A stretch of 32,017 nucleotides of DNA from a virus. Positions 1,674 to 32,017 of this stretch are shown here, piece by piece. Both the position numbers and the translations under genes were made by a program. Under the pieces are notes generated by a model. The model saw nothing but the letters and a program-made list of their open reading frames with translations. It did not search any database and was not told the origin of the DNA. The stretch's first letter is position 1. Each line of letters starts with the position of its first letter. The stretch is from positions 1 to 32,017 of IMG/VR virus record IMGVR_UViG_3300010049_000008; one strand, 5' to 3'.

Positions 1674-1704
1674 CCCCCCCCCGTTAACATTGTGAGGAAT
1701 AAAT
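1665..1704 (+). promoter_or_regulatory. Promoter-like element with a C9 tract: TTTATCTAA-CCCCCCCCC-GTTAACATTGTGAGGAATAAAT-ATG
   Basis: A/T box at 1665..1673, homopolymer C9 at 1674..1682, and GAGG 9 nt before ATG 1705. The same CCCCCCCCCGTTA 13-mer occurs on the other strand at 28848..28860, also upstream of a gene. Confidence 0.4.
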
Positions 1705-3002: not shown

Positions 3003-3653
3003 ATGAAAAAACAAACCTATGAATACCTAATAGCGGCATTATTAATAACCGCAATAATTTTAGGCATAACAGCTTTTATAATACTTTATCCGTGGGGACA
3101 AGAAACCACACAAGCAAACTGCAACATCACACCCACGGTAAATGTCACAGATGCAGAGTTAGCCGTATATCAACAAGTCAGCCAAGAAACCCGCATGAAC
3201 CACAAAACAAACCCCGCCTATTTCATGCAAAGCAGTCACCCAAAAATAATCGCGCTATGCAAACAATTAAACCAGCAGGGCGTAGACCAAAACCTAACCC
3301 CGGAAGAATTCGCACAATACCTCCTCAACTACGTATACACCGCCATCCAATATGCAGAAGACAAAGACACAACCCCCTACAACGACTACTACAATTTTCC
3401 CATAGAAACCTTAGCCCTCGGCTATGGCGACTGCGAAGACACCGCAATGCTCTACATGACCCTTTTAGATTACTTCAATTATGACTATTGTGCTTTCATA
3501 ACCAACACCCACTATTTTGTGGGTATAGCTGGAAACTTTAGCGGCAACCAAATAAACGGATACTACTATGCAGACACAACAACATACAACTATATTATCG
3601 GTAATCCGGTGGTACAAATAGAGGGAGAAAGAGTATGGCAATACTACCCTTAG
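3003..3653 (+). CDS. Signal-anchored transglutaminase-like (papain-fold) cysteine peptidase; candidate lysin
   Basis: N-terminal TM segment (YLIAALLITAIILGITAFIILY), then LALGYGDCEDTAMLYMTLL (the G-x-C-x-D core motif of transglutaminase-like enzymes), a later HYFVGI (His) and YYADTT (Asp). Confidence 0.65.
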   Translation: MKKQTYEYLIAALLITAIILGITAFIILYPWGQETTQANCNITPTVNVTDAELAVYQQVSQETRMNHKTNPAYFMQSSHPKIIALCKQLNQQGVDQNLTPEEFAQYLLNYVYTAIQYAEDKDTTPYNDYYNFPIETLALGYGDCEDTAMLYMTLLDYFNYDYCAFITNTHYFVGIAGNFSGNQINGYYYADTTTYNYIIGNPVVQIEGERVWQYYP

Positions 3654-10477: not shown

Positions 10478-11009
10478 CGCTTTTGACCTCGCTTATTACG
10501 CCTATTATACCACGCAAGCCAGTTAATAAGGAAAGAATACATTCCCACAGAGGCCGTATTAGGGTCAAACTGCGGGAACTCGTGCATCACATACCCCAGA
10601 TTTTTCGCGTCGGTGCAGAGGGTTATATTACGTCCTCTAAAAAACCAGTAGTCAACTTGGAAAGCAACACAGAGAAGCGGCTAAACTTTAATGCACTGCT
10701 GTCCTTGATTTGTGCTATGGTGATGTCTGGGTATACTCTTTTTTGCATGTAATATGCTAACTGTACGGTCTTGTCTATGCCGTCGGTGATTTTTTCAAGG
10801 CTTTGTTGTTCCGCTACAGTAATCATGTTGAATTTGATTTTTCCAAGTATGGGGTCTGTTATGAAAAGTTCTTTGTGGACGTCTGAGACTGTGTCAAAAA
10901 TGCTAAATTCGGTTGTAGTTTGTTCTTTGATTAATCTTTGAATTTCTGCTTGATAAAATTTGGCTTCTAATTCAGGATTACTTTTAGGGGCTGGTTTAGG
11001 AGTAGACAT
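10474..11009 (-). CDS. Tail assembly chaperone -1 frameshift product (GT-like), ~178 aa
   Basis: After a -1 slip at T_TTT_TTA (10638..10644), the frame AGA GGA CGT AAT ATA ACC ... CAA AAG CGG TGA is open for 54 codons. It ends at TGA 10474..10476, overlapping the TMP GTG start (GGTGA). Confidence 0.55.
10623..11009 (-). CDS. Tail assembly chaperone (G-like), 128 aa
   Basis: Lies between the tail tube and TMP genes and carries a TTTTTTA slippery heptamer 5 codons before its stop. Confidence 0.6.
   Translation of the reverse strand: MSTPKPAPKSNPELEAKFYQAEIQRLIKEQTTTEFSIFDTVSDVHKELFITDPILGKIKFNMITVAEQQSLEKITDGIDKTVQLAYYMQKRVYPDITIAQIKDSSALKFSRFSVLLSKLTTGFLEDVI
10638..10644 (-). promoter_or_regulatory. 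Programmed -1 ribosomal frameshift slippery site T_TTT_TTA
   Basis: In-frame X_XXY_YYZ heptamer (GGT TTT TTA) near the 3' end of the chaperone gene. The -1 frame is the only open frame filling the 145-nt gap to TMP. Confidence 0.55.
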
Positions 11010-11042
11010 AATTATAACAGTGTTATACCCGAAATAAAAGGG
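11010..11042 (-). promoter_or_regulatory. Promoter-like CTTTTATTTC box plus 15-bp palindrome TATAACACTGTTATA just upstream of the chaperone ATG
   Basis: The minus strand reads CCCTTTTATTTCGGGTATAACACTGTTATAATT-ATG, with the box 31 nt from the ATG. The same palindrome occurs at 24647..24661. Confidence 0.4.
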
Positions 11043-11456
11043 TTAGGGTGCAACCGCCCGGATGGGTGGTGCAATAATCACAGCTTCCAAACTAAAGGTC
11101 ACAATGGCCTCTTGTTCTACGCTCTGTGTGGCAGATGAAACAATTACGGAGTAGGTGTGCATTGGTTTTCCTGTTACGGGGCCAAGCGGATAATCGATGA
11201 TTTCTATAGCCGCGCCCGCCTCCAAAAGATTCGCATAAGTATCATCAACATAGAGATGCTCCATTGATATGTTTCCTGTGAGGTTCCCCATAACAGAAAT
11301 ACCCCATTGAGCCGCGCTTGTTTGGCCCAAAACATATTCCTGAACCACGTTTCCCTCTTCAGATACTTCATAACTTGTGCAATAACCAGCTATAGCGCCG
11401 TCTATCACTAACTGTGCTAATCTGCCAATTTGAGGCGTATTAGTAGGTGTACTCAT
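11043..11456 (-). CDS. Major tail (tube) protein, 137 aa
   Basis: Position immediately upstream of chaperone/TMP, with its own TTTTTTAACTTC promoter like the capsid and scaffold genes. No sheath gene is present, so a non-contractile tail is expected. Confidence 0.55.
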   Translation of the reverse strand: MSTPTNTPQIGRLAQLVIDGAIAGYCTSYEVSEEGNVVQEYVLGQTSAAQWGISVMGNLTGNISMEHLYVDDTYANLLEAGAAIEIIDYPLGPVTGKPMHTYSVIVSSATQSVEQEAIVTFSLEAVIIAPPIRAVAP

Positions 11457-11497
11457 GAATATTCACAAATAAGTTAGGTCGAAAGAAGTTAAAAAAC
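11457..11497 (-). promoter_or_regulatory. Late-type promoter: TTTTTTAACTTC box 40 nt upstream of the tail tube ATG
   Basis: The minus strand reads GTTTTTTAACTTCTTTCGACCTAACTTATTTGTGAATATTC-ATG. The 12-mer (11485..11496) recurs at 15351..15362 and, with one change, at 16729..16740. Confidence 0.5.
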
Positions 11498-11521
11498 AAA
11501 AATTATCTTGAGGTGAATAGT

Positions 11522-11560
11522 CCCCGGGTAGCATAGGAAGTTCGGAGGAACTACCCGGGG
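11522..11560 (-). terminator. 10-bp GC-rich hairpin followed by T5/T6 runs (terminator-like) between the neck genes and the tail tube
   Basis: CCCCGGGTAG (11522..11531) is complementary to CTACCCGGGG (11551..11560). On the minus strand, ATAATTTTTGTTTTTT follows about 20 nt later. Confidence 0.5.
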
Positions 11561-15317: not shown

Positions 15318-15363
15318 AATAGTTTTTCACTACATAAGAATGAGAGACCAGAAGTTAAAAAAG
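15318..15363 (-). promoter_or_regulatory. Late-type promoter: TTTTTTAACTTC box 45 nt upstream of the capsid ATG
   Basis: The minus strand reads CTTTTTTAACTTCTGGTCTCTCATTCTTATGTAGTGAAAAACTATT-ATG. Confidence 0.5.
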
Positions 15364-15396: not shown

Positions 15397-16698
15397 TTAG
15401 GGGTTGGCACCCATTAGGGCCGCCATAACTGCACCAATATCCCCATTATACTGGATGAGGAGTTCACGTGCATTCTGTTCTACACCGCGTGCCCGCTTAA
15501 CATTGGGGCCTGACCCGGTTTCTGCTGTTGGGCTGGTTTGTTTAGCATCGGTTCGGGTGGGGACTAAGTCAGGGTTCGCGTTTGGTATGGTGCCCGCATC
15601 TGCGCCCGCTTCAACTTGTTTAGCTTGCTCGTATCCACCGGTGTTGGGGCCGCCCATAGTTGGAGGACAAGTAACATTAGCGGGAGTCCAAGTACCCTCC
15701 TGATATTTACCACGGAATTTACGTTCAGCCGCCATAAGAATCTCTTGGGGTGTACGGTTCTGTTTTAGCGACTCTTCTTGTTCTTCTTCCTCTTCACCTT
15801 CGCCCTCTTCCCCCTCTTCTTCTTCGGTTTCAACTTCTACAGTAGTGATGTTGACTTCGACAGATTCTTTAGGTTTTTTCTTCTCTTTCTTTTGCTTCTC
15901 CTCTTCCTCTTCTTCCTCGTCTTTGTCGTCCGCTTCTTCTTCCTCCTCCTCTTCATCTTTAGCTTCTTCTTTGGATTTCTTTTTCTTAGCGGCCTCTTTA
16001 GATTTCTTGGTTTTGGTTTCTTCTTCTTCTTCTTCTTCTTCTTCTTCTTCTTCTTCTTCTTTGGCGGCTTGTTTTAGGGGTTTGCATGTTGGGCATCCGC
16101 ATTCTGCGACGTGTACGGGTTGGAGTTTAGCCATCATAGCTTCCAATATTTTTAGTTTCGCGTCAAAAGTTTCATCTATACGTTTCATGGCTGATTCATA
16201 TATGCGAGTTGATTTTTCGCTGTCTCTGAGGCTTTGGGTGATACGTGATATTTCAGTCATGGCCGCCTGTTCAATTGCCGGGAAAGGTGTGATGCTTAAT
16301 TCTTCGGGGTTGAATTCGATAATCATTTCTTTCCCGTCTGCGGTTAGTACCATTGGGCCGTTACCGCCGACAGAAACACCCATCAACATTTTAGGCTTAC
16401 CGTTCTCGCCGCTCATTTTTTCGAAAAGGGATTCGTGAAGCAAGCCGCGGCCAGACAACCAAAGACCATCAACAGTTTGACCCAACGCATTTTTTCCTGT
16501 ACCATATTCTGCGGATTCCACAACACCCGCAACATCACGAGACCCAAAGCCGTGGTCTAACATGAGGGGTTTTCCGGGGTACTTTGGTGCGGCGTCCATT
16601 AATGTTTTTTCGTTCCAGATATAGCCGTTGCGCGACTCGGTTGGGTAAGCCGCGAAAGCTTTCCAATTGAAATATGCATTACCTTGTTTATCTGCCAT
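15397..16698 (-). CDS. Prohead protease (HK97 / S78-like) fused to a coiled-coil and highly acidic scaffold domain, 433 aa
   Basis: PLMLDHGFGSRDVAGVV, LMGVSVGG and EELSITPFPAIEQA match the landmarks of HK97-family prohead proteases. A coiled coil and a ~100-aa Glu/Lys tract follow. Confidence 0.8.
   Translation of the reverse strand: MADKQGNAYFNWKAFAAYPTESRNGYIWNEKTLMDAAPKYPGKPLMLDHGFGSRDVAGVVESAEYGTGKNALGQTVDGLWLSGRGLLHESLFEKMSGENGKPKMLMGVSVGGNGPMVLTADGKEMIIEFNPEELSITPFPAIEQAAMTEISRITQSLRDSEKSTRIYESAMKRIDETFDAKLKILEAMMAKLQPVHVAECGCPTCKPLKQAAKEEEEEEEEEEEEEETKTKKSKEAAKKKKSKEEAKDEEEEEEEADDKDEEEEEEEKQKKEKKKPKESVEVNITTVEVETEEEEGEEGEGEEEEEQEESLKQNRTPQEILMAAERKFRGKYQEGTWTPANVTCPPTMGGPNTGGYEQAKQVEAGADAGTIPNANPDLVPTRTDAKQTSPTAETGSGPNVKRARGVEQNARELLIQYNGDIGAVMAALMGANP
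16018..16059 (-). repeat. Perfect (GAA)14 trinucleotide microsatellite inside the scaffold domain
   Basis: The plus strand reads ttc x14 without interruption and encodes a poly-Glu run. Further imperfect GAA/GAG/AAG runs extend down to about 15770. Confidence 0.9.
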
Positions 16699-18739: not shown

Positions 18740-19626
18740 TAAGTTTCATTCTCCTCTCTTAATTCATCTATACATATCTGGCAGAAACAACCTCCTCCTA
18801 CAACAGGCTGGTTGTGGATTTGGCACCATTTCGCTGGGTTCTTCATGTCCTCGGCTGTGGGGATTTGGGGTGCGCCTTTATCGTGTTCGAGGCAGTCAGG
18901 GCGTACTTTAGGTGTTTCTTTTCCATAGAATGATTGGTTTTGTTCTTCGGTGTTTCCGGGGGGCTGAATATTGGGTGTTGTGGTGGCTACGGTGTCTTTT
19001 GTCCATGTTTCTTCTGCACGTTTATATTGCTCTACTACTTTGGCAGGGGCTTGTTTGGCGGGTATTTTGTAATCAGCTAATGTTTTTTTTGGGTTGTAGG
19101 TTGCGGGTGGTGTGGCTTCGGGTTCAGACTGAGATTCAGCAGTAGGGGCGGGAGTTGTTACGGTGATGTCGTCGGGGTTGAGGTGCATAATGTTTTCTTC
19201 CTGTTTCAGATAAGCGTTAATCATAGATGCTATGAAGTCTGCGGGAAGAATCTTCATAAAAGCATTTCGCTCAGCCTTATTCACACATTGTTCAAATGCG
19301 AAGGGTTTATGTTTCTCCTGTTCCTTAGCGCCTAACACGTCAATGTTGTTTTCGCCGTCATGTATCTGTACTATTACGCGGTAGGTTTTTTCTGTTTCTA
19401 AGAATTGGTGGCTGGTGATGGTTACGTTTTTGCGGCGTCGTATGACTTCTTTTACACCGGCGTAGCTTAGGCATGATACTTCTCGGCCTCCTTGTTTTAT
19501 GACGTATACGTATTTTTTTAGGAGGTGGGTTTGTCCTTCCATTTCGGCCAAGATTTGTGCGTCATCTTGTCGGTCAAAGGTTTGGCAGTCTTGGGTTGTG
19601 GGTTTGTTTGTTAATTCGGTTGTCAT
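18739..19626 (-). CDS. 295-aa protein of unknown function; possible DNA-metabolism role
   Basis: A globular N-terminal ~150 aa (..LSYAGVKEV..., ..CVNKAERNAFMKILP..), a Thr/Pro/Glu-rich linker, and a C-terminal CQIH...CFCQIC knuckle. The largest non-structural gene. I could not place it in a family. Confidence 0.6.
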   Translation of the reverse strand: MTTELTNKPTTQDCQTFDRQDDAQILAEMEGQTHLLKKYVYVIKQGGREVSCLSYAGVKEVIRRRKNVTITSHQFLETEKTYRVIVQIHDGENNIDVLGAKEQEKHKPFAFEQCVNKAERNAFMKILPADFIASMINAYLKQEENIMHLNPDDITVTTPAPTAESQSEPEATPPATYNPKKTLADYKIPAKQAPAKVVEQYKRAEETWTKDTVATTTPNIQPPGNTEEQNQSFYGKETPKVRPDCLEHDKGAPQIPTAEDMKNPAKWCQIHNQPVVGGGCFCQICIDELREENET

Positions 19627-19691
19627 GTTTTCACATTCATCATGTTGTTTAATTTTATGTGATGTTTACAGTGTTTGTTGTGGTATTTAAA
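19627..19691 (-). promoter_or_regulatory. Promoter cassette P8 with micro-uORF: TTTAAATAC-N12-cTGTAAACAT-N9-TTAAACAAC-ATGATGAATGTGAAAACATGA
   Basis: TATA-like box at 19683..19691 (minus strand) and a 9/10 copy of the operator at 19662..19670. AACAACATG opens a 6-codon uORF whose TGA overlaps the gene ATG at 19626. Confidence 0.45.
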
Positions 19692-19762
19692 CCTTGCACT
19701 TACATAACCGCTTACATAACTGGTATAGTTTTTATTATGTCGTGCACCAGTTTACCAATAGT

Positions 19763-19809
19763 TTTATATATTCGTTTGCTATATGTAAACATATAGGAAG
19801 AACAACAAC
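19763..19809 (+). promoter_or_regulatory. Promoter cassette P5: TTTATATA-N8-CTATATGTAAACATATAG-GAAGAACAACAAC-ATG
   Basis: TATA octamer at 19763..19770, 18-nt palindrome at 19779..19796 (8-nt arms), and ATGTAAACAT at +21..+30 from the TATA start. Divergent from P8. Confidence 0.5.
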
Positions 19810-20007
19810 ATGACCACACAAATAACCAAAGAACGTAAAATTGAATTAATTGCACAAGCTGAAAATATTCATCGACAAGCCTTCAAACTATACTGTGACT
19901 TAGGAGAGGCAGAGGTTGGAGTTAAAATTGACAGCCAAGTTGCAAAAATCAGCCAACTTTTAAATAAAATTGTTAAAGACCTGAAAGCTCTGGAAGTTAA
20001 TAAATGA
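19810..20007 (+). CDS. 65-aa helical protein; first gene of a plus-strand island
   Basis: Track ORF with AACAACATG start context and its own promoter. Confidence 0.6.
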   Translation: MTTQITKERKIELIAQAENIHRQAFKLYCDLGEAEVGVKIDSQVAKISQLLNKIVKDLKALEVNK

Positions 20008-20144
20008 CCCTAACAGAACTTAACACCCTTTTCCAACAATATGAAGCCAAAATAGAAAAAGAATACACAGGATACCAGAAAGACCTGCAGAAACAGAGTT
20101 TAGCACGCTGGTTCTACGCCGAAAAAAAGAAGCTGGGACTCTAA
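20004..20144 (+). CDS. 46-aa helical micro-protein (MTLTELNTLFQQYEAKIEKEYTGYQKDLQKQSLARWFYAEKKKLGL)
   Basis: Hand-translated. ATGA overlap with the upstream stop. Its TAA is interleaved with the stop of the convergent gene 20141..20863. Confidence 0.45.
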   Translation: MTLTELNTLFQQYEAKIEKEYTGYQKDLQKQSLARWFYAEKKKLGL

Positions 20145-20863
20145 GCCTCCATATCTTCCGGCTTAACATCTTTGGGCACCCGCAACAGCGGCCCCCGCTC
20201 AGGTGTTACCAATCCAGTGTCTTCGGGGCTGTTCTGCTTAGAGGGCGTGTTTCCTTTCGGGAAAGTTTTTCTTGTACCGTAGGGAGACTCCACATCAATC
20301 CTATTAAGTTTAACCCACTTCTTGAACATGTATTCTCCGTGAGCAATGGTTTCGCCGTTGAAAACTGCTTGTTTCTGAAACGCTTTCTGAATCCGCTTAA
20401 TATCATCACTATAAGTTTTACGCTGATGTATTTTATTTGAGAAAGAGTAATCACCGGGGTTTTTCTTAATCAAGTCTATTTCTGGAGTTTTTAGTGGGTC
20501 AGGAGGTGAGAGACTGCCCCAATCGAAGCTGTAGGGGTCAAGGTCTTCGGCAGGTTCCAATAATTTCGCTAAGCTGTCCGGGGTATATTCTCCCGCTTTC
20601 ACCACAAGCATGCAACGGTCGTGAGGATGTACCATTGGGAATATAAGTTCATCATCATGCTCAATCTTTTCGGGGAACTGCCCATTCACTTCCATCATCG
20701 ACATAATTGATGCGTTGTATTGTTCACAATCTTCACAAGTCTTTTCATCCGCTACAGCAACATACATCCACCAGCGGGAAGCCTGCACAATCCCCCGTAA
20801 CTGCAAGATTTTCAATTGGTCGCTGACTCGAAAAGCCATAAAGGGAGGGAGAACTGATGACAT
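20141..20863 (-). CDS. Minor head / head morphogenesis protein (Mu F / SPP1 gp7-like domain), 240 aa
   Basis: VADEKTCEDCEQYN ... FPMVHPHDRCML fits the D-x-x-T-C-x-x-C ... HP-x-x-R-C signature of the Mu F family. Immediately follows the portal with TAATG overlap. Confidence 0.7.
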   Translation of the reverse strand: MSSVLPPFMAFRVSDQLKILQLRGIVQASRWWMYVAVADEKTCEDCEQYNASIMSMMEVNGQFPEKIEHDDELIFPMVHPHDRCMLVVKAGEYTPDSLAKLLEPAEDLDPYSFDWGSLSPPDPLKTPEIDLIKKNPGDYSFSNKIHQRKTYSDDIKRIQKAFQKQAVFNGETIAHGEYMFKKWVKLNRIDVESPYGTRKTFPKGNTPSKQNSPEDTGLVTPERGPLLRVPKDVKPEDMEA

Positions 20864-22458
20864 TAGCTTACACGTGTTAAGATTGTTTTACCGTCCTTAA
20901 TTTCTGTTGCCCACGATTCAGCTTGAGTTCCCGCTACGTTTGAGGAGTCGCGTAAGGTGGGTTTGGTGTTTCCTTCGTACAGGGTGCCTTCGGCGGCGTC
21001 TTCGGGTAGCTGGAGTTGTTCTCTTACGGTTTCTGCATCAATTACCCCCGCCATAAACAATTCAAGCAGAGGCCTTGTGAGCGCGGTTAGGTCGGCGGTG
21101 ACTATGGGTTTGAATCGGAATTCTAAGCCGGGGCCAATCCACTGCTTAATTAACTGCTCGTTTATGAGGTCTTCTATGGCTTGCTGGTGAGCTTTCACGT
21201 TGTTTGTGAGAACTTCAAACTTTAGGCCGCCCCACTTAATTTCTCCCTGATTATTTCCTTGCGGGTCAAGAAGAGAACTGGGTACACCCAAACCAAGTAA
21301 TACACGTTCTTTCCAGATGTTTATTAGTTCGGCTATTCCGCGTATTTGACCCTCATTTTTATAAATCTGCTCAATGGTGGTGAATATATCAGTGTATATG
21401 TCGCTGGTTGGGGGAAGAGCAGTCATCTGGGCTTTCCATTTTTGGAACCCGTCCGCAGGCGCAAAGATTGTGTCTTCTACGCCTGATTGTTTCATGTTCC
21501 CGCCATACTTTAGCTGTAGCCTGACATCTGCTCTTTTCTGTACGATAGCTGGCAGATATTGAATCATGAGCAGGTAAGCTTTGAGCGTGTAATATACTTC
21601 TTTGAATGAACTGTAACCATATATGCCTCCAGCCATGTTGTTAAATTTCAATTGATAAATCTGCTCACGATGCAAATAAATATCAGTATACGCCGCAGAT
21701 AAACCCGCCTCTATACTGGAGATGTTCTGTTCCCACGCACGCTGTATGTATGCGTCTGTTTCTATTTCTGCTAATTTCTTGTTGAACATAGATGGATTTT
21801 TTATTACTCGCATGGTTCGTGGGTCAAGTTTTTTGAGACCGTAGAACTCGGTGGCGGGCACCCATTTTATAAGGGTGCGGGCGGCGGCTAACTGAGCCGC
21901 ACCGACAGCTGTGGGAGCGGATTGGTTATTAGTCCACGTGGCCCGGCTGTTATCATTACTTTCGCAGTATCCATTTCCATAAACTATTGCGTCATGCGTC
22001 ATTTCTTTAAATTTGGCTTCTAACTTTTTGTTGTTCCATAATTCCATAAACTTTTCTTTAAGTTTAGTGTCTTTTTTGTCTGCAACAATTAAGTTAAAGC
22101 CATTTTTCCAAACTAAGTTAACGTAAAGTTTAACCATGAATGAGGCTTCAGGACAATTAGCCCGGGTCTGGATATAGTCCCAATAGAACGCCCAGTCATC
22201 CGGCCACCCGAACTGAGGATTATACACACCAAGCGGAAGTAAAGTTTGAGCTTGAGCTATGTCCGCTTGTGTAATTCTTCTACTCGCCAAGGTTGCCGCT
22301 GAAATTCCGGGAGCAAAATAAGCGTCTTTCCCATCAATATTCACACCGGTACCCATCACTCTGTAGGTGTTTTCTTCGCTGAAAGCCGGCAGTTTATTAT
22401 CCCCATAGGCTTGGGCATTGGGAGTTTGTTTGGCTATTACTTTGAAAGGATTGCGCAT
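20863..22458 (-). CDS. Portal protein, 531 aa
   Basis: Size and canonical position, 4 nt downstream of TerL and upstream of the Mu F-like gene. Confidence 0.8.
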   Translation of the reverse strand: MRNPFKVIAKQTPNAQAYGDNKLPAFSEENTYRVMGTGVNIDGKDAYFAPGISAATLASRRITQADIAQAQTLLPLGVYNPQFGWPDDWAFYWDYIQTRANCPEASFMVKLYVNLVWKNGFNLIVADKKDTKLKEKFMELWNNKKLEAKFKEMTHDAIVYGNGYCESNDNSRATWTNNQSAPTAVGAAQLAAARTLIKWVPATEFYGLKKLDPRTMRVIKNPSMFNKKLAEIETDAYIQRAWEQNISSIEAGLSAAYTDIYLHREQIYQLKFNNMAGGIYGYSSFKEVYYTLKAYLLMIQYLPAIVQKRADVRLQLKYGGNMKQSGVEDTIFAPADGFQKWKAQMTALPPTSDIYTDIFTTIEQIYKNEGQIRGIAELINIWKERVLLGLGVPSSLLDPQGNNQGEIKWGGLKFEVLTNNVKAHQQAIEDLINEQLIKQWIGPGLEFRFKPIVTADLTALTRPLLELFMAGVIDAETVREQLQLPEDAAEGTLYEGNTKPTLRDSSNVAGTQAESWATEIKDGKTILTRVS

Positions 22459-22461
22459 ATT

Positions 22462-23910
22462 TTATGACCCGCTTACATAACTATTGGGTGCTGTTTTGTT
22501 TATAAGCTTATTTTCAGCTCCCCCCACATTAGAGCTTGGTGCACGCACACCCCTAAACACATTCTCACAGAGTAACACTACGGCATCAACGGCGTCGTCG
22601 TGAGCATCTTTGGGAAAACTTACCCATTGCTGGGTAAATAATGAGTCTCTAAGTGCTGGATTGATAAGCACTCTCATGGCTTCGAAGTGAGCACTTGCCA
22701 CCGTAAAACGTATCTCCTTATTTGTGTGGGTGTGTACGGGGACGATGGGGTAAGTGGTGCCGTTGGGGTGGGTTCTGAAGTTGGCATGTTTTATCAATAT
22801 TTTCTGCATGAAATTGGCCTCAACATACATTTTTAATGGATTATATTTTTCAAATTCGTTTGGCAGATGAGCTGATAATATTTCAAAATAATCCTTATGT
22901 TCTGCCCATACATTATAGAGATATAACCTATTCTGAAACGCCGAATAACCCCCCGTGGCTATTGCAAAGTAGTCATTTTCTCCTCCTGCTGGGTCAATTG
23001 CCATATATGGTTTTATGTCGGTGGGTGTGTAGGGGCTTAAGTTTGGCTGGGTTGTATCCCAATAATGAAGCCACTCCGCTTTTAGCATATCACCCGTGGC
23101 GGGCAACGGCTGGTTTATATATTGGTTAAAGAATTTGATTGTGCCCAAATCATTTTTACGTTCTAAAAGGGCTTCGATGGGCCAGACTTCCGGCCACAAC
23201 ACTTGAGCGGGTTCACGGCCTGCAAAGTAGGCCTCGCTGTTTTTGATGGCGCTTAAACTTTGAGACGGCCATCCTAAACCATTCTCCGATTTGGGGTTTA
23301 TGAGATTACTGTATAGGTCGTTATTGTGCCATCGGGAACCTATCACAATTATTGCGCCTGTGCTAAACATTGTGGGGAGCAACGCCTCACGAAACCAATC
23401 AAACGCCTTATTTCTTTGGAGTTCGGTGCCGACATTCTCTACATCTATTATGTCGTCACAAATGATGAGGTCAAATCCCTGTCCCGTCAGATTTCCCGAA
23501 CCGTATAGGCCCGAGGCGCTTAGGGTGGGAAATTTACTTATCTGTTTTCGTTCTAAGGTGAAAGCGTTATCGTTCCATTGTTGTGGGTTATCTGGTTTTA
23601 GATTACCAAATACTTCTATGTGACGTTTATCAAATTCAATCCTGCGCCGAACAGCTTTCAAAGTATTAGTAGCCAGAGTGTCAGTTTTTGAGGTTATTAA
23701 TGCGTGTAATTCTGGGAACCGGGAGATTATCCAGCTTAAACAATTAATTGCAAAAACTTCTGATTTAGCATGTTTTCGAGGGCCAAGAAAAACATATTTC
23801 TTGAGCGCCTGCTTATGGTCGGGGAGGGGGCTTATGTGGTTCTGGTTGTTTTGGGGAGAAAATAGGTTATACCAATAGTTTTGATAATCAGCTATGTTTT
23901 GGTAACCCAT
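22462..23910 (-). CDS. terL: Terminase large subunit, 482 aa
   Basis: Walker-A-like FLGPRKHAKS, Walker B FDLIICDD, and C-terminal nuclease acidic motifs MAIDPAGG and HDDAVDAVV. Confidence 0.9.
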   Translation of the reverse strand: MGYQNIADYQNYWYNLFSPQNNQNHISPLPDHKQALKKYVFLGPRKHAKSEVFAINCLSWIISRFPELHALITSKTDTLATNTLKAVRRRIEFDKRHIEVFGNLKPDNPQQWNDNAFTLERKQISKFPTLSASGLYGSGNLTGQGFDLIICDDIIDVENVGTELQRNKAFDWFREALLPTMFSTGAIIVIGSRWHNNDLYSNLINPKSENGLGWPSQSLSAIKNSEAYFAGREPAQVLWPEVWPIEALLERKNDLGTIKFFNQYINQPLPATGDMLKAEWLHYWDTTQPNLSPYTPTDIKPYMAIDPAGGENDYFAIATGGYSAFQNRLYLYNVWAEHKDYFEILSAHLPNEFEKYNPLKMYVEANFMQKILIKHANFRTHPNGTTYPIVPVHTHTNKEIRFTVASAHFEAMRVLINPALRDSLFTQQWVSFPKDAHDDAVDAVVLLCENVFRGVRAPSSNVGGAENKLINKTAPNSYVSGS

Positions 23911-24646: not shown

Positions 24647-24661
24647 TATAACAGTGTTATA
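24647..24661 (-). promoter_or_regulatory. 15-bp perfect palindrome TATAACACTGTTATA 3 nt upstream of ATG 24643 (second copy at 11013..11027)
   Basis: The plus strand reads tataacagtgttata at both loci. An adjacent second palindrome, ATATAACC-N5-GGTTATAT, lies at about 24668..24688. Confidence 0.5.
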
Positions 24662-24689: not shown

Positions 24690-24995
24690 CTACAATACTT
24701 TCAAAACAACATCAGAAACAAGCGTTATTATCATAACAGCCAACCCAGCAACGACTAATTTAAGTTCTTGACTAATTTTCTTATCATGTTGAACCATCAC
24801 CCCCAAACTAATTTTTATCTCCGTTAATTCTTTTGCGAGGGGGCCGTTCATGTTGTCTTCTATTTTCGAAATTCGGTTAGAAGTTTCTTCACATTTACGA
24901 TTAAAATCGGGTATAAAGTGTCTTTGGAAAAAGTTTGAGTGACTCTTTAGCTCTACAACTGAGCGTTCTACAGCATCTATTCTTGTTTCTGTCAT
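24690..24995 (-). CDS. 101-aa coiled-coil protein with C-terminal membrane anchor
   Basis: Track ORF ending in LKLVVAGLAVMIITLVSDVVLKVL, with its own promoter. Confidence 0.6.
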   Translation of the reverse strand: MTETRIDAVERSVVELKSHSNFFQRHFIPDFNRKCEETSNRISKIEDNMNGPLAKELTEIKISLGVMVQHDKKISQELKLVVAGLAVMIITLVSDVVLKVL

Positions 24996-25038
24996 ATCCT
25001 TCCCTATACATTTCAGGGAATAAAAGCTTATAAATAAA
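24996..25038 (-). promoter_or_regulatory. Promoter cassette P7: TTTATTTATAA-N..-ATAGGGAAGGAT-ATG (TATA start 43 nt from the ATG)
   Basis: Same 43-nt TATA-to-ATG spacing as P1/P3/P6, and the same ATAGGGAAGGA leader as P6. Confidence 0.45.
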
Positions 25039-25041
25039 CTT

Positions 25042-25081
25042 GGTGGTTCTGTGCGGGGTGAATAGTCCCCGCGGAACCACC
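25042..25081 (-). terminator. Strong interrupted hairpin (8 + 6 bp stem) right after the stop of the 56-aa ORF
   Basis: GGTGGTTC/GAACCACC and GCGGGG/CCCCGC pair around the loop tgaatagt. On the minus strand the T-rich TTTATTTAT follows. Confidence 0.55.
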
Positions 25082-25255: not shown

Positions 25256-25609
25256 TTAATCCCTCTCAGTTAAGTTAGTTTTGTCATAATTGAAACGTAC
25301 ACTGCTTATTCGGCTTTCTATACCTGCAATACGTCTATTTAATTCACCTATATACAGGTCAAGTTCTACACCATCTTGGATTAGGTAATATCCATTAGAG
25401 GTTGCTCCTATGGGCAGATAGGTATGTTTAATCAGGAATCGGATGTAGCTTCTTGTTTTGGGATTGGCTTCGCCGTCGTTTATGTCAAGTTTTTCTGCTA
25501 TCTCGGTGCTGGTTATAGGGTTATCTTTTCCGGCGTGTTGTACAAGTAAGTTTTGAAGCTGTCTCAATGTTTGGCCGTCTAAACGGTGTTTAGTTCCTTT
25601 TTTGTTCAT
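25256..25609 (-). CDS. Winged-helix (HTH_11/BirA-like) transcription regulator, 117 aa
   Basis: NPITSTEIAEKLDI...KTRSYIRFLIKHTYLPIGATSNGYYL is a typical wHTH, followed by a helical tail. Start set at the ATG after the conserved leader. Confidence 0.65.
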   Translation of the reverse strand: MNKKGTKHRLDGQTLRQLQNLLVQHAGKDNPITSTEIAEKLDINDGEANPKTRSYIRFLIKHTYLPIGATSNGYYLIQDGVELDLYIGELNRRIAGIESRISSVRFNYDKTNLTERD

Positions 25610-25652
25610 GTTGTTTAACTCCATGTTAACATATACCAAAGTAGTATTTAAA
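25610..25652 (-). promoter_or_regulatory. Promoter cassette P3: TTTAAATAC-N11-ATGTTAACAT-GGAGTTAAACAAC-ATG
   Basis: 35 nt (25606..25640) are identical to P1/P2. TATA-like box at 25644..25652 and palindrome at 25623..25632. Confidence 0.55.
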
Positions 25653-28834: not shown

Positions 28835-28872
28835 GTTGACCACACCATAACGGGGGGGGGAACATAAATAAA
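28835..28872 (-). promoter_or_regulatory. Leftward promoter-like element with a C9 tract: TTTATTTAT-GTT-CCCCCCCCC-GTTATGGTGTGGTCAAC-ATG
   Basis: A/T box at 28864..28872 (minus strand) and G9 on the plus strand at 28852..28860. Same CCCCCCCCCGTTA as at 1674..1686. Confidence 0.4.
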
Positions 28873-29400: not shown

Positions 29401-29567
29401 CTCTATATCTGCACTCCTACGCAAATAGTAAGTTTGCGTTAATTGCCACAATTGATTAAGCATACCCTAATAGGTGAAAGTCATAATTAAAGTTATCTGA
29501 AATCAACCAAAACAACATTTTTGTTGTAGAGGCAAAGTTTCCGTTTTTCTATTCAACCAATGACTTA

Positions 29568-29610
29568 GGGTTAACGGGGTTAAAGAGGTTTAACCCCGTA
29601 AGGGGTTTTT
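29568..29610 (+). promoter_or_regulatory. Cluster of GGGGTTAA boxes forming two mutually exclusive hairpins
   Basis: H1 pairs ACGGGGTTAAA (29574..29584) with TTTAACCCCGT (29589..29599). H2 pairs AACCCC (29592..29597) with GGGGTT (29602..29607) around a GTAA loop, followed by a T run. Confidence 0.5.
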
Positions 29611-29841
29611 GAGTATTATAGTTTAGCGTTTTTTAGAGGGAGAAAAAGAAAAGTTAAGAAAGTTAAAGTTATTAATAGTATATATACTACTACTATCTAC
29701 ATTTACTTTTACTTTTACTTACAAGTAATACAATCGATACTTACACAACATCATATTTAAGGCTTTCCCAACAAACAATCAGGTGATTAGGGTGGATTTT
29801 TGGGTGCTGGAAAAAGTGTTTTATTGTTTTTCGCTTAGAAA

Positions 29842-29868
29842 GTTTAACCCAGTTAACCCCGTTAACCC
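29842..29868. repeat. Three tandem GTT(T)AACCC(C) boxes, inverted relative to the 29568..29584 boxes
   Basis: GTTTAACCC a GTTAACCCC GTTAACCC. Together with the upstream G-strand boxes they bracket a ~230-bp A/T-rich stretch containing (TTTTAC) repeats. Confidence 0.7.
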
Positions 29869-29930
29869 TGTTTGGTTGTTGTAGTTAGTTGCAATATTCT
29901 AAAAGTTATTCAACTAAAGTTTAATCTATT

Positions 29931-30018
29931 GTTAAACATGTTAAAGGTTGTGCAAAAGGTTAAGATGTTAAACATGTTAAAGGTTGTGCAAAAGGTTAAG
30001 ATGTTAAACATGTTAAAG
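29931..30018. repeat. 36-bp tandem direct repeat, 2.4 copies (iteron/operator-like)
   Basis: gttaaacatgttaaaggttgtgcaaaaggttaagat occurs at 29931..29966 and 29967..30002, both identical, with a partial third copy at 30003..30018. Each copy contains the AACATGTT palindrome. The array abuts the TATA box at 30019. Confidence 0.9.
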
Positions 30019-30063
30019 TTTATTAATGTGAGTGCAGTAAAGTCTATTATGGAGTTAAACAAC
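30019..30063 (+). promoter_or_regulatory. Rightward promoter P4: TTTATTAAT-N21-ATGGAGTTAAACAAC-ATG (opens an 11-codon uORF)
   Basis: It shares the 18-nt leader ATGGAGTTAAACAACATG with P1-P3. The ATG at 30064 encodes only MTTNKRNYLWL, which overlaps the real start at 30090. Confidence 0.5.
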
Positions 30064-30089
30064 ATGACTACAAACAAGAGGAATTATTT

Positions 30090-30326
30090 ATGGTTGTAAA
30101 AGAAATTAAAACACATGAAACCCGTCATCTGCTCATAAAAAGTCGTCATCCCGGAGAGGCCGCGTTAATAAAAGAGTTTAAGTTAATGGCAATACGTCAA
30201 AACAGTAATCACAACGAACTGTTTAACACTGTAATTCAGTTGGTAAAGGTGATTGAGCAGTTAGAAAATAAGTCATTAAATGAAGTGTATTATGAATACA
30301 CAAAAAAGTTATCGGTAGAGGGATAG
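30090..30326 (+). CDS. Hypothetical protein, 78 aa; first gene of the rightward arm
   Basis: Track ORF with GAGGAA 7 nt upstream. Possibly a small DNA-binding protein, but no motif is certain. Confidence 0.6.
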   Translation: MVVKEIKTHETRHLLIKSRHPGEAALIKEFKLMAIRQNSNHNELFNTVIQLVKVIEQLENKSLNEVYYEYTKKLSVEG

Positions 30327-31309: not shown

Positions 31310-31352
31310 TTTATATATCCGTTTGGTATATGTTAACATGGAGTTAAACAAC
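31310..31352 (+). promoter_or_regulatory. Promoter/operator/leader cassette P2 (identical to P1)
   Basis: 31310..31358 equals 2243..2291 (49/49). TATA at 31310..31317 and palindrome at 31330..31339. Confidence 0.6.
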
Positions 31353-31526
31353 ATGACCAGCACAGAACAATACAGAATAATAAACCGATTAACAACAGTA
31401 TGGGAAGAATTAGACGAACTACAACAAAGCCTATACCAGAAAGAACGCGACCAAATAATAGAGGCTAAAGTAGCGGTTGACAAAATTCTCAAAACCTTAA
31501 CAACCAACGACCACTATATAGAGTGA
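31353..31526 (+). CDS. 57-aa helical protein (MTSTEQYRIINRLTTVWEELDELQQSLYQ...)
   Basis: Track ORF 31323..31526 trimmed to the ATG after the conserved leader. Confidence 0.55.
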   Translation: MTSTEQYRIINRLTTVWEELDELQQSLYQKERDQIIEAKVAVDKILKTLTTNDHYIE

Positions 31527-31886: not shown

Positions 31887-32017
31887 ATGCGTATAGTGGC
31901 AGAAGCGTTAGAACGCTCATTCATCCAGCACATAAGCCTCCATCAGAATAGATTGTATTATCACATTTTTTGTGATGACCCCTTACAAATGCAGAGTTAT
32001 CAACAAGAATTAACCAA
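31887..32017 (+). CDS. Small ORF crossing the junction (49 aa, MRIVAEALERSFIQHISLHQNRLYYHIFCDDPLQMQSYQQELTKGVYGI); finishes at TAA 140..142 in the left copy
   Basis: ATG at 31887. The frame stays open through the repeat, and its TAA overlaps the next ATG (TAATG at 140..144). No family recognised. Confidence 0.3.
   Translation, partial: MRIVAEALERSFIQHISLHQNRLYYHIFCDDPLQMQSYQQELT
31895..32017. repeat. Terminal direct repeat, right copy (exactly equals 1..123)
   Basis: Same 123-nt string as 1..123. The window stops exactly at the end of the overlap, as expected for a circular or circularly permuted contig written with redundant ends. Confidence 0.95.

Follow-up and report, generated by a model that had tools for sequence, protein, structure and literature searches.

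Among the viruses of archaea, small virus-encoded proteins bind DNA at repeats or palindromes in or near the TATA box, the B recognition element (BRE), or the transcription start site of several viral promoters, their own included (PMC5569661; PMC10123103). The sites of SSV1 F55 overlap the transcription start site or the BRE, and SvtR of SIRV1 represses its own gene (PMC5569661). In SNJ2, the winged-helix protein Orf4 acts as repressor on a palindromic operator adjacent to the TATA box, and for the phiH1 repressor, binding was suggested to interrupted palindromes that lie upstream of its own gene (PMC10123103). The stretch of DNA analyzed here—positions 1 to 32,017 of IMG/VR virus record IMGVR_UViG_3300010049_000008, hereafter the window—shares the layout of these systems: several viral promoters carry one and the same site, a palindromic 10-mer of the form ATGTWAACAT (the box), and one of these promoters drives a gene of DNA-binding type, namely a winged-helix gene. 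F55 and SvtR are, however, ribbon–helix–helix proteins acting on tandem or imperfect repeats, whereas the compact palindrome of the box spans 10 bp and keeps a constant spacing from the TATA box upstream of it. Furthermore, the candidate regulator belongs to another winged-helix family (phrog_2113).

Among cellular archaeal repressors, MDR1, Phr, LrpA, and NrpR bind in the interval from TATA box to start site, as do TrmB/TrmBL1 and SurR when their site lies downstream of the TATA box. As in these systems, the site described here is dyad-symmetric and lies at about −10 to +1, where a block of RNA polymerase recruitment after binding of TBP (TATA-binding protein) and of TFB (transcription factor B) would be expected. 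Cellular operators usually span 16–20 bp with separated half-sites and serve chromosomal regulons, whereas this site is viral, shorter, and welded to its TATA box and to the start context. The latter—an invariant AACAACATG at the start codon—has an analogue in the start-associated sequences of mycobacteriophages. The stoperators of those phages are asymmetric and scattered in genes, whereas the copies of the box all occupy one promoter position. By analogy, the arrangement resembles archaeal promoter-proximal operators.

Six promoters of the window bear the box. P1 (2243–2288, plus strand) has its TATA box at 2243–2250, the box ATGTTAACAT at 2263–2272, and the ATG of a 122-aa gene at 2286. P2 (2960–3005, plus strand), with a T-rich tract upstream, has its TATA box at 2960–2967, the box ATGTAAACAT at 2979–2988 within a 16-bp palindrome (2976–2991), and an ATG at 3003. 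The same ATGTAAACAT is found in P3 (19763–19812, plus strand) at 19783–19792, here within an 18-bp palindrome (19779–19796) between a TATA box at 19763–19770 and the ATG of a 65-aa gene at 19810. Divergent from P3 is P4 (19623–19691, minus strand), where a TATA box at 19684–19691 is followed by a 9/10 version of the box, CTGTAAACAT, at 19662–19671 and then by AACAACATG. P5 (25606–25652, minus strand) consists of the TATA box TTTAAATA at 25645–25652, which overlaps the stop codon of the gene upstream, the box ATGTTAACAT at 25623–25632, the leader GGAGTTAAACAAC, and an ATG at 25607–25609, which is the start of the winged-helix gene. P6 (31310–31355, plus strand), finally, has its TATA box at 31310–31317, the box ATGTTAACAT at 31330–31339, and the ATG of a 57-aa gene at 31353.

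The coupling between TATA box and box is tight. The octamer TTTAWATA occurs nine times in the genome; all six intergenic copies are followed by (A/C)TGTWAACAT and then by AACAACATG, and the three box-free copies (19959 and 23114 on the plus strand, 25738 on the minus strand) are all intragenic. The octamer TGTWAACA occurs six times genome-wide, always at one of the six box promoters. For the full 10-mer ATGTWAACAT, eight strand-hits compare with 0.44 expected, and none of 100 shuffled sequences reached eight. Since the half-sites TATGTWA, TGTWAAC, and GTTAAM occur genome-wide at expectation, it is the complete site alone that stands out. In P1, P3, P4, P5, and P6, the box begins 20 nt past the first T of TTTAWATA (nt 21–30), and in P2, 19 nt after it (nt 20–29). 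The original prediction, also made from this sequence, had listed the boxes of P1, P2, P3, P5, and P6, and its coordinates and sequences are all correct. So are the extended palindromes that it gave for P2 (CCTATGT-AA-ACATAGG) and P3 (CTATATGT-AA-ACATATAG) and the offset from the TATA start common to these promoters, P2 being one nucleotide nearer. The 9/10 copy that it mentioned in passing is real, but belongs to a promoter with its own TATA box at equal offset, so that there are six such promoters and not five. An explanation of the box as a restriction site (GTTAAC is the site of HpaI) was rejected, since GTTAAC is missing from three of the six boxes and 12 of its 15 sites lie outside promoters.

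Some of the copies are of recent common origin. P1 (2243–2291) and P6 (31310–31358) show 100% identity over 49 nt, and their identity to P5 is 90%. These three promoters evidently represent one duplicated cassette of promoter, leader, and start codon; hence, they do not count as independent copies, and independent support comes from P2, P3, and P4. Between independent promoter types, 7–8 of 8 positions are identical in the TATA box, 8–10 of 10 in the box, and 9 of 9 in the AACAACATG start context. The spacer between TATA box and box, on the other hand, retains only 0–5 of 12 positions in comparisons involving P2 or P4, and the leaders of P2 and P4 match the rest at about random identity. As spacer and leader have diverged while the box has been retained, the box evidently is a discrete block under its own constraint, and no passenger of recent duplication.

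Further features adjoin these promoters. The P2 gene (3003–3653) encodes a transglutaminase-like protein of cysteine-protease fold (PF01841, 1.7e-5) with a hydrophobic N-terminal segment, recognized by eye, that would anchor it in the membrane; it may have an envelope-degrading or egress function. In the divergent P3/P4 region, GTTATGTAAG is present twice in tandem, at a distance of 12 bp, directly upstream of the P4 TATA box (19699–19720, minus strand). This sequence includes the left arm of the P2/P3 box (TATGTAA), and with a third copy at 22472–22481 (minus strand), three copies are observed versus 0.1 expected. The promoter of the gene at 24690–24995 (24997–25038, minus strand) reads TTTATTTATA, then ATGTA|TAGGGAAGGA, so that the P2 leader directly follows the left half of the box, as if AACA had been deleted. 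Possibly, this is a seventh box promoter in degenerate form.

The symmetry of the box is pronounced. Three sites are perfect 10-bp palindromes, and five of the six carry ATGT/ACAT arms; P4 retains TGT/ACA only. In P2 and P3, ATGT-AA-ACAT is lengthened to arms of 7 and 8 bp, whose outer bases differ between the two promoters (CC../..GG versus CTA../..TAG). A second palindrome, the 15-bp TATAACAGTGTTATA (TATAACA-G-TGTTATA), is found at 11013–11027 and 24647–24661, where it occupies the stretch from a TATA-like element to the ATG of the minus-strand genes starting at 11009 and 24643. It contains the box half-site TGTTA in opposite relative orientation. With two more promoters arranged in this way, palindromes between TATA box and start look like a general design in this genome.

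The arms of the box recur in 36-bp iterons, of which 2.5 copies lie at 29930–30021 (plus strand). Two iteron copies contain ATGTTAAACAT (29965–29975 and 30001–30011), which differs from the box by an additional A in the center, and copy 1 contains TTGTTAAACAT; the sites thus read ATGTT-A-AACAT twice and TTGTT-A-AACAT once, with the same ATGTT/AACAT arms as the box. The original prediction had already related the iterons to the box, and both they and the shared arms are real, although ATGTTAAACAT comes closer to the box than the AACATGTT that it had named as their core. The last iteron copy abuts the TATA-like element of a further promoter, P7 (30019–30099, plus strand), whose weak TTTATTAA (30019–30026) is followed by the cassette leader ATGGAGTTAAACAACATGAC (30049–30068), the box being absent. 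The iterons are part of a 1.2-kb noncoding region between divergent gene blocks, which contains both inverted repeats and iterons (29560–30021): inverted repeats of 28 nt (29567–29594 and 29842–29869), rich in GGTTAAC/GGTTAAA, flank an AT-rich stretch, and the iterons follow. This region looks like an origin or a regulatory hub.

The interpretation of TTTAWATA as a TATA box depends on the host. Bases 1–123 of the window are identical to bases 31895–32017, and from these exact direct repeats at both ends, the virus genome evidently is complete and terminally overlapping—circular or circularly assembled, or terminally redundant—with a length of ~31,894 bp. It encodes a large terminase (22462–23910, minus strand; phrog_38 match, 1e-81), a portal protein (20863–22458, minus strand), and head–tail adaptor and tape-measure-like proteins, and is that of a tailed virus. 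The phages of INPHARED and GenBank yielded no nucleotide or protein matches. Relatives of the terminase with 41–50% identity are present in 11 contigs of Bathyarchaeia metagenome-assembled genomes (MAGs), one of them inside a 3.05-Mb chromosome; the closest relative shows 52% identity. Homologues of the winged-helix protein are likewise annotated in Bathyarchaeia MAGs. An identical contig is present in ENA ERZ27264051, and a portion of it in a 9.6-kb contig of SRR10512954. Since the terminase relatives reside in Bathyarchaeia loci, the host evidently is an archaeon, which makes it reasonable to read TTTAWATA as a TATA box. Five of the six box promoters carry AA at −4/−3 before it, which fits a BRE that orients transcription toward the downstream gene. 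A bacterial σ70 reading was rejected: TTTATA as −35 and TATATG as −10 element would leave a spacer of 11 nt, the −10 element is absent in P2 and P4 by manual count, and the host assignment is archaeal. A σ70 consensus scan of 19400–20200 found two sites versus 1.8 expected, i.e., no excess.

The start of transcription can be estimated from promoters with shorter leaders. At the minus-strand gene starts 11009 and 24643, the ATG has its A at nt 31 after the TATA-like element; in three consensus-TATA promoters of Bathyarchaeia and in one related virus contig, it is at nt 31–32, as would be expected of leaderless mRNAs. This agrees with the distance from the TATA center to the start in archaea, which is ~26–27 bp. 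By the leaderless-type spacing, transcription from the six box promoters is predicted to start near nt 29–32, at or just past the 3′ end of the box, which places the box at roughly −10 to −1, between TATA box and predicted start and within the core promoter. In five of the six promoters, the box ends in CAT and the next base is G or A; its A+T content is 80%. The original prediction let the box overlap the initiation site, so that a bound dimer would block or position RNA polymerase. By our estimate, the box adjoins the predicted start, and a dimer bound there might indeed block the enzyme.

The leaders show some peculiarities as well. The sequence ATGGAGTTAAACAAC-ATG is found at 2271–2288 (P1), 25607–25624 (P5, minus strand), 30049–30066 (P7), and 31338–31355 (P6), and ATGGAGTTAAACAAC itself holds an in-frame ATG exactly at the predicted start site. 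The mRNAs of these promoters could be leaderless, with a five-residue MELNN extension of the protein—the apparent GGAG Shine–Dalgarno sequence would then be codon 2—or could have a 13-nt leader with GGAG as Shine–Dalgarno sequence at its extreme 5′ end. All seven cassette starts have AACAACATG without variation, and two other gene starts are preceded by it as well (2280, 2997, 19804, 30058, 31347, and 31526 on the plus strand; 25615, 19649, 18398, and 21642 on the minus strand). The 8-mer CAACATGA occurs 14 times versus 1.6 expected, and AACAACATG looks like a virus-specific start-associated sequence. The cassette ATG of P4 opens a 6-codon mini-open reading frame (mini-ORF; 19643–19623, minus strand; MMNVKT*), which overlaps the ATG (19626) of a 295-aa gene. 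That of P7 opens one of 11 codons (30064–30099, plus strand; MTTNKRNYLWL*), which overlaps the start (30090) of a 78-aa gene. These overlaps suggest control by upstream ORFs or translational coupling.

Comparison with other genomes sets the cassette apart. The box 10-mer is absent from all loci of relatives that were fetched, whose contigs contain few consensus TATA boxes and none with a box. Nor does it occur in any of 26 upstream regions with a TATA box from Bathyarchaeia and related virus loci, or in the promoters of rpoB and peptidase genes. The original prediction would have been refuted by a box common to host promoters; these regions belong to other Bathyarchaeia lineages, which may not be that of the host, and lack the box. 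The pattern of TATA box and box gave single chance matches only in IMG/VR, and the three-block pattern of TATA box, box, and start context gave one chance match, on a bacterial contig, in the JGI metagenomes. An exact 20-mer of the cassette had no match in IMG/VR. In the data available, the promoter cassette is thus private to this virus.

Our preferred reading, which we hold tentatively and somewhat short of probable, is that a regulator binds the box as a dimer and, with the box as its operator, blocks RNA polymerase at the six promoters. The promoter-proximal operator would be (T)ATGT-WA-ACAT(A), and a dimeric sequence-specific protein—most likely encoded by the virus—would sit on it between TATA box and start, at about −10 to −1. 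The bound protein would allow TBP and TFB onto the TATA box and prevent either recruitment of RNA polymerase or promoter opening. As a result, the six strongest promoters of the virus would be repressed in a coordinated manner: the packaging and structural operons behind P5 and P4, the former headed by the winged-helix gene, and four accessory operons. The same protein may also occupy the three iteron sites just upstream of the weak early promoter P7. This reading is favored because the box is conserved as a block of its own and all six TGTWAACA octamers stand at one TATA offset; because of the dyad symmetry, which an initiator element read in one direction would not need; and because the box abuts the predicted start. 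Archaeal repressors that block RNA polymerase recruitment classically bind next to the start site. It is further favored by the recurrence of the arms in the iterons, by a second class of palindromes between TATA box and ATG, by the absence of the box from the 26 Bathyarchaeia and related virus regions and from the relatives' loci, and by the precedents of archaeal viruses, i.e., F55, SvtR, Orf4, and the phiH1 repressor.

A candidate for such a regulator is encoded directly behind one of the boxes. The winged-helix gene (25256–25609, minus strand), the first gene downstream of P5, encodes a protein of 117 aa that belongs to phrog_2113, a family of unknown function, for which an exhaustive HMMER search collected 418 representatives. 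An AlphaFold2 model from the single sequence was poor (predicted local distance difference test, pLDDT, of 43) and was superseded by a model based on an alignment of 70 sequences, which reached a pLDDT of 93.7. It consists of three helices, a β-hairpin wing (residues 67–76), and a long C-terminal helix (80–116), the latter being a possible dimerization element. Foldseek matched the model to generic winged helices—NiaR, TM1602, the N-terminal domain of BirA, MepR, and LexA, with E-values of ~1e-2—and to uncharacterized phage proteins, so that the winged-helix fold, which had been predicted from the translation, is borne out. Neither the single protein nor its profile gave a significant sequence match in the PDB, and the phiH1-repressor-like family to which SNJ2 Orf4 belongs (PDB 3B73, as cited in PMC10123103) is not among the top 50 Foldseek matches there. 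Homologues lie beside genes of N6_N4 DNA methyltransferases (PF01555) in four independent nonviral contexts, three of them in Bathyarchaeia. In three of the four, the homologue is convergent with the methyltransferase gene, and a small CxxC zinc-ribbon ORF lies between the two; the fourth, an unassigned metagenome contig, has methyltransferase genes on both sides and GmrSD and MazE nearby. This neighborhood hints at a link of the family to restriction–modification or defense. A methyltransferase of this type is not encoded in the viral genome, and no comparable palindrome was seen in the upstream regions of homologues that were examined. A copy of the box does precede the winged-helix gene, as had been taken for a sign of autoregulation, but nothing ties its protein to the box, and we think it unlikely that this protein is the box binder.

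Several observations weigh against an operator. Half of the box copies trace back to the single duplicated cassette, no relative carries the cassette, and the box is coupled perfectly to a consensus TATA box and the invariant AACAACATG, a coupling that a constitutive strong-promoter cassette would show just as well. In host genomes, homologues of the winged-helix protein adjoin DNA methyltransferases and lack such a box upstream. Moreover, a 10-bp palindrome appears short for a winged-helix dimer: since both arms fall within about one major groove, a ribbon–helix–helix dimer would suit it better than recognition helices one turn apart, whereas the 16–18-bp palindromes of P2 and P3 would fit a winged-helix dimer better. 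Searches against Pfam, PHROGs, and the PDB detected no ribbon–helix–helix protein. The product of the first real gene after P7 and the iterons (30090–30326) was considered as one because of a β-α-α pattern recognized by eye and was dropped, as these same searches returned nothing for it.

These points lead to the strongest competitor of the operator, which we regard as plausible if rather doubtful: the box might be the AT-rich proximal or initiator part of a composite core promoter, read by the host's TFB, transcription factor E, and RNA polymerase, with incidental palindromy and without a dedicated regulator. Box, consensus TATA box, and a translation start optimized by AACAACATG would then form a strong cassette that was copied around the genome. 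The joint conservation of TATA box, box, and start context is what such a cassette would show, and the 100% identity of P1 and P6 over 49 nt demonstrates that copying is recent. All intergenic consensus TATA boxes have the box, and promoters with weaker TATA elements—P7, the promoter of the gene starting at 28843 (minus strand), and the TATAACAGTGTTATA class—do not. With its 80% A+T, the box covers the region melted in the open complex, and its 3′ end has C-A and T-G/T-A steps, in keeping with a pyrimidine/purine initiator. An initiator, however, needs neither dyad symmetry nor arms extended with different outer bases, and the arms recur in the iterons, outside any TATA-to-start interval. The motif occurs in none of the 26 TATA-bearing Bathyarchaeia or related upstream regions. 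To our knowledge, archaeal proximal elements are degenerate, and we know of none that is an invariant 8-mer. A virus-specific element downstream of the TATA box is nevertheless on record, the GTC motif of SIRV1/2 (PMC5569661), which is the closest precedent for a core-promoter element: like the box, it is a short motif repeated at many promoters or gene starts of one virus, and it is absent from host promoters, as is the box from the Bathyarchaeia promoters compared here. Unlike the box, it comprises 3 nt, follows the TATA box directly, and is nonpalindromic.

The iterons raise the question of a second use of the same arms. In iteron plasmids, Rep binds direct repeats as monomer and an inverted-repeat operator as dimer. 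The window follows a similar logic in that direct repeats of a control region share their arm sequence with inverted repeats at promoters; yet, no Rep-like protein was found, and the inverted repeats are located at six promoters instead of a single rep promoter. If one viral protein read the ATGTT/AACAT arms in both geometries, it would act on the three 11-bp sites of the iterons in activation or at an origin and on the six 10-bp boxes in repression, which we consider decidedly unlikely. The sites upstream of P7 would fit the position-dependent activation and repression known for SurR and TrmBL1. Such a protein would be a viral counterpart of SurR/TrmBL1 dual regulation or of the Rep autoregulation of iteron plasmids; the arrangement would amount to a temporal switch that depends on site position and acts across the genome of a tailed Bathyarchaeia virus, and would be the first regulatory circuit defined for this virus–host group. 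In another version, the direct repeats would be an origin or partition site bound by a replication or segregation protein, which as a dimer would also bind the box and thereby couple copy number to expression. The 2.5 iterons hold the same arms and lie in the 1.2-kb noncoding region next to the 28-nt inverted repeats and their AT-rich stretch, as such a site might. No replication initiator, ParB/ParA, or Rep-like protein was recognized in any ORF, though, the half-site spacing differs by one base between iteron and box, and the iterons abut the P7 TATA element and are explicable as an ordinary upstream regulatory site. We hold this version, which would be a special case of protein binding, to be quite improbable.

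Action of the transcribed palindrome as RNA, through a 5′ hairpin or through pairing with the AACAUG start region, in mRNA stability or translation is highly improbable: P2 and P3 do fold into 6–7-bp hairpins with UAAA loops (z = −2.8 and −3.8), their differing outer arm bases remain complementary, and AUGUU has its complement in the AACAU of the start context, but folding gave nothing significant for P1, P4, P5, and P6 (z = −0.2 to −1.6), and a perfect 10-mer is incapable of a useful hairpin. Moreover, transcripts from the local promoter would lack the 5′ arm, as their start is predicted at the 3′ edge of the box.

Other repeats of the window lie outside the box promoters. Tracts of nine C, each followed by GTTA, are located at 1674–1682 (plus strand) and 28852–28860 (minus strand), 20–30 nt upstream of the genes starting at 1705 (plus strand) and 28843 (minus strand), the second directly after the TATA-like TTTATTTATG; they may be slippage-prone or regulatory. 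TTTTTTAACTTC is repeated at 11485–11496 and 15351–15362 (minus strand), upstream of the genes starting at 11456 and 15317. The GC-rich GGGGACTATTCACC is found at 11512–11525 and 25057–25070 (minus strand), upstream of the genes starting at 11456 and 24995. Judged by eye, its flanks can pair into a stem at 25057–25070 and only weakly at 11512–11525, and it is possibly a terminator. A long repeat rich in GAA/CTT triplets (15758–16074) encodes an acidic, Glu/Lys-rich low-complexity segment within the gene at 15397–16698, which has weak matches to major head proteins in PHROGs.

Bathyarchaeia are abundant, uncultivated archaea of sediments, and their viruses are known only from metagenomes. In a survey of Bathyarchaeia viruses, the text contains neither "promoter" nor "TATA", and we found nothing on transcription control of these viruses. 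The genome described here offers an unusually clean set of promoters: six near-consensus TATA boxes with palindrome and start context, a second class of palindromes, and an early promoter that lacks the box. As an operator, the box would define the first regulon of a Bathyarchaeia virus; as a core element, it would inform on the promoter architecture of Bathyarchaeia. Either way, the principle is a familiar one—an ordinary type of switch in a little-studied group of viruses, and as such tidy rather than surprising.

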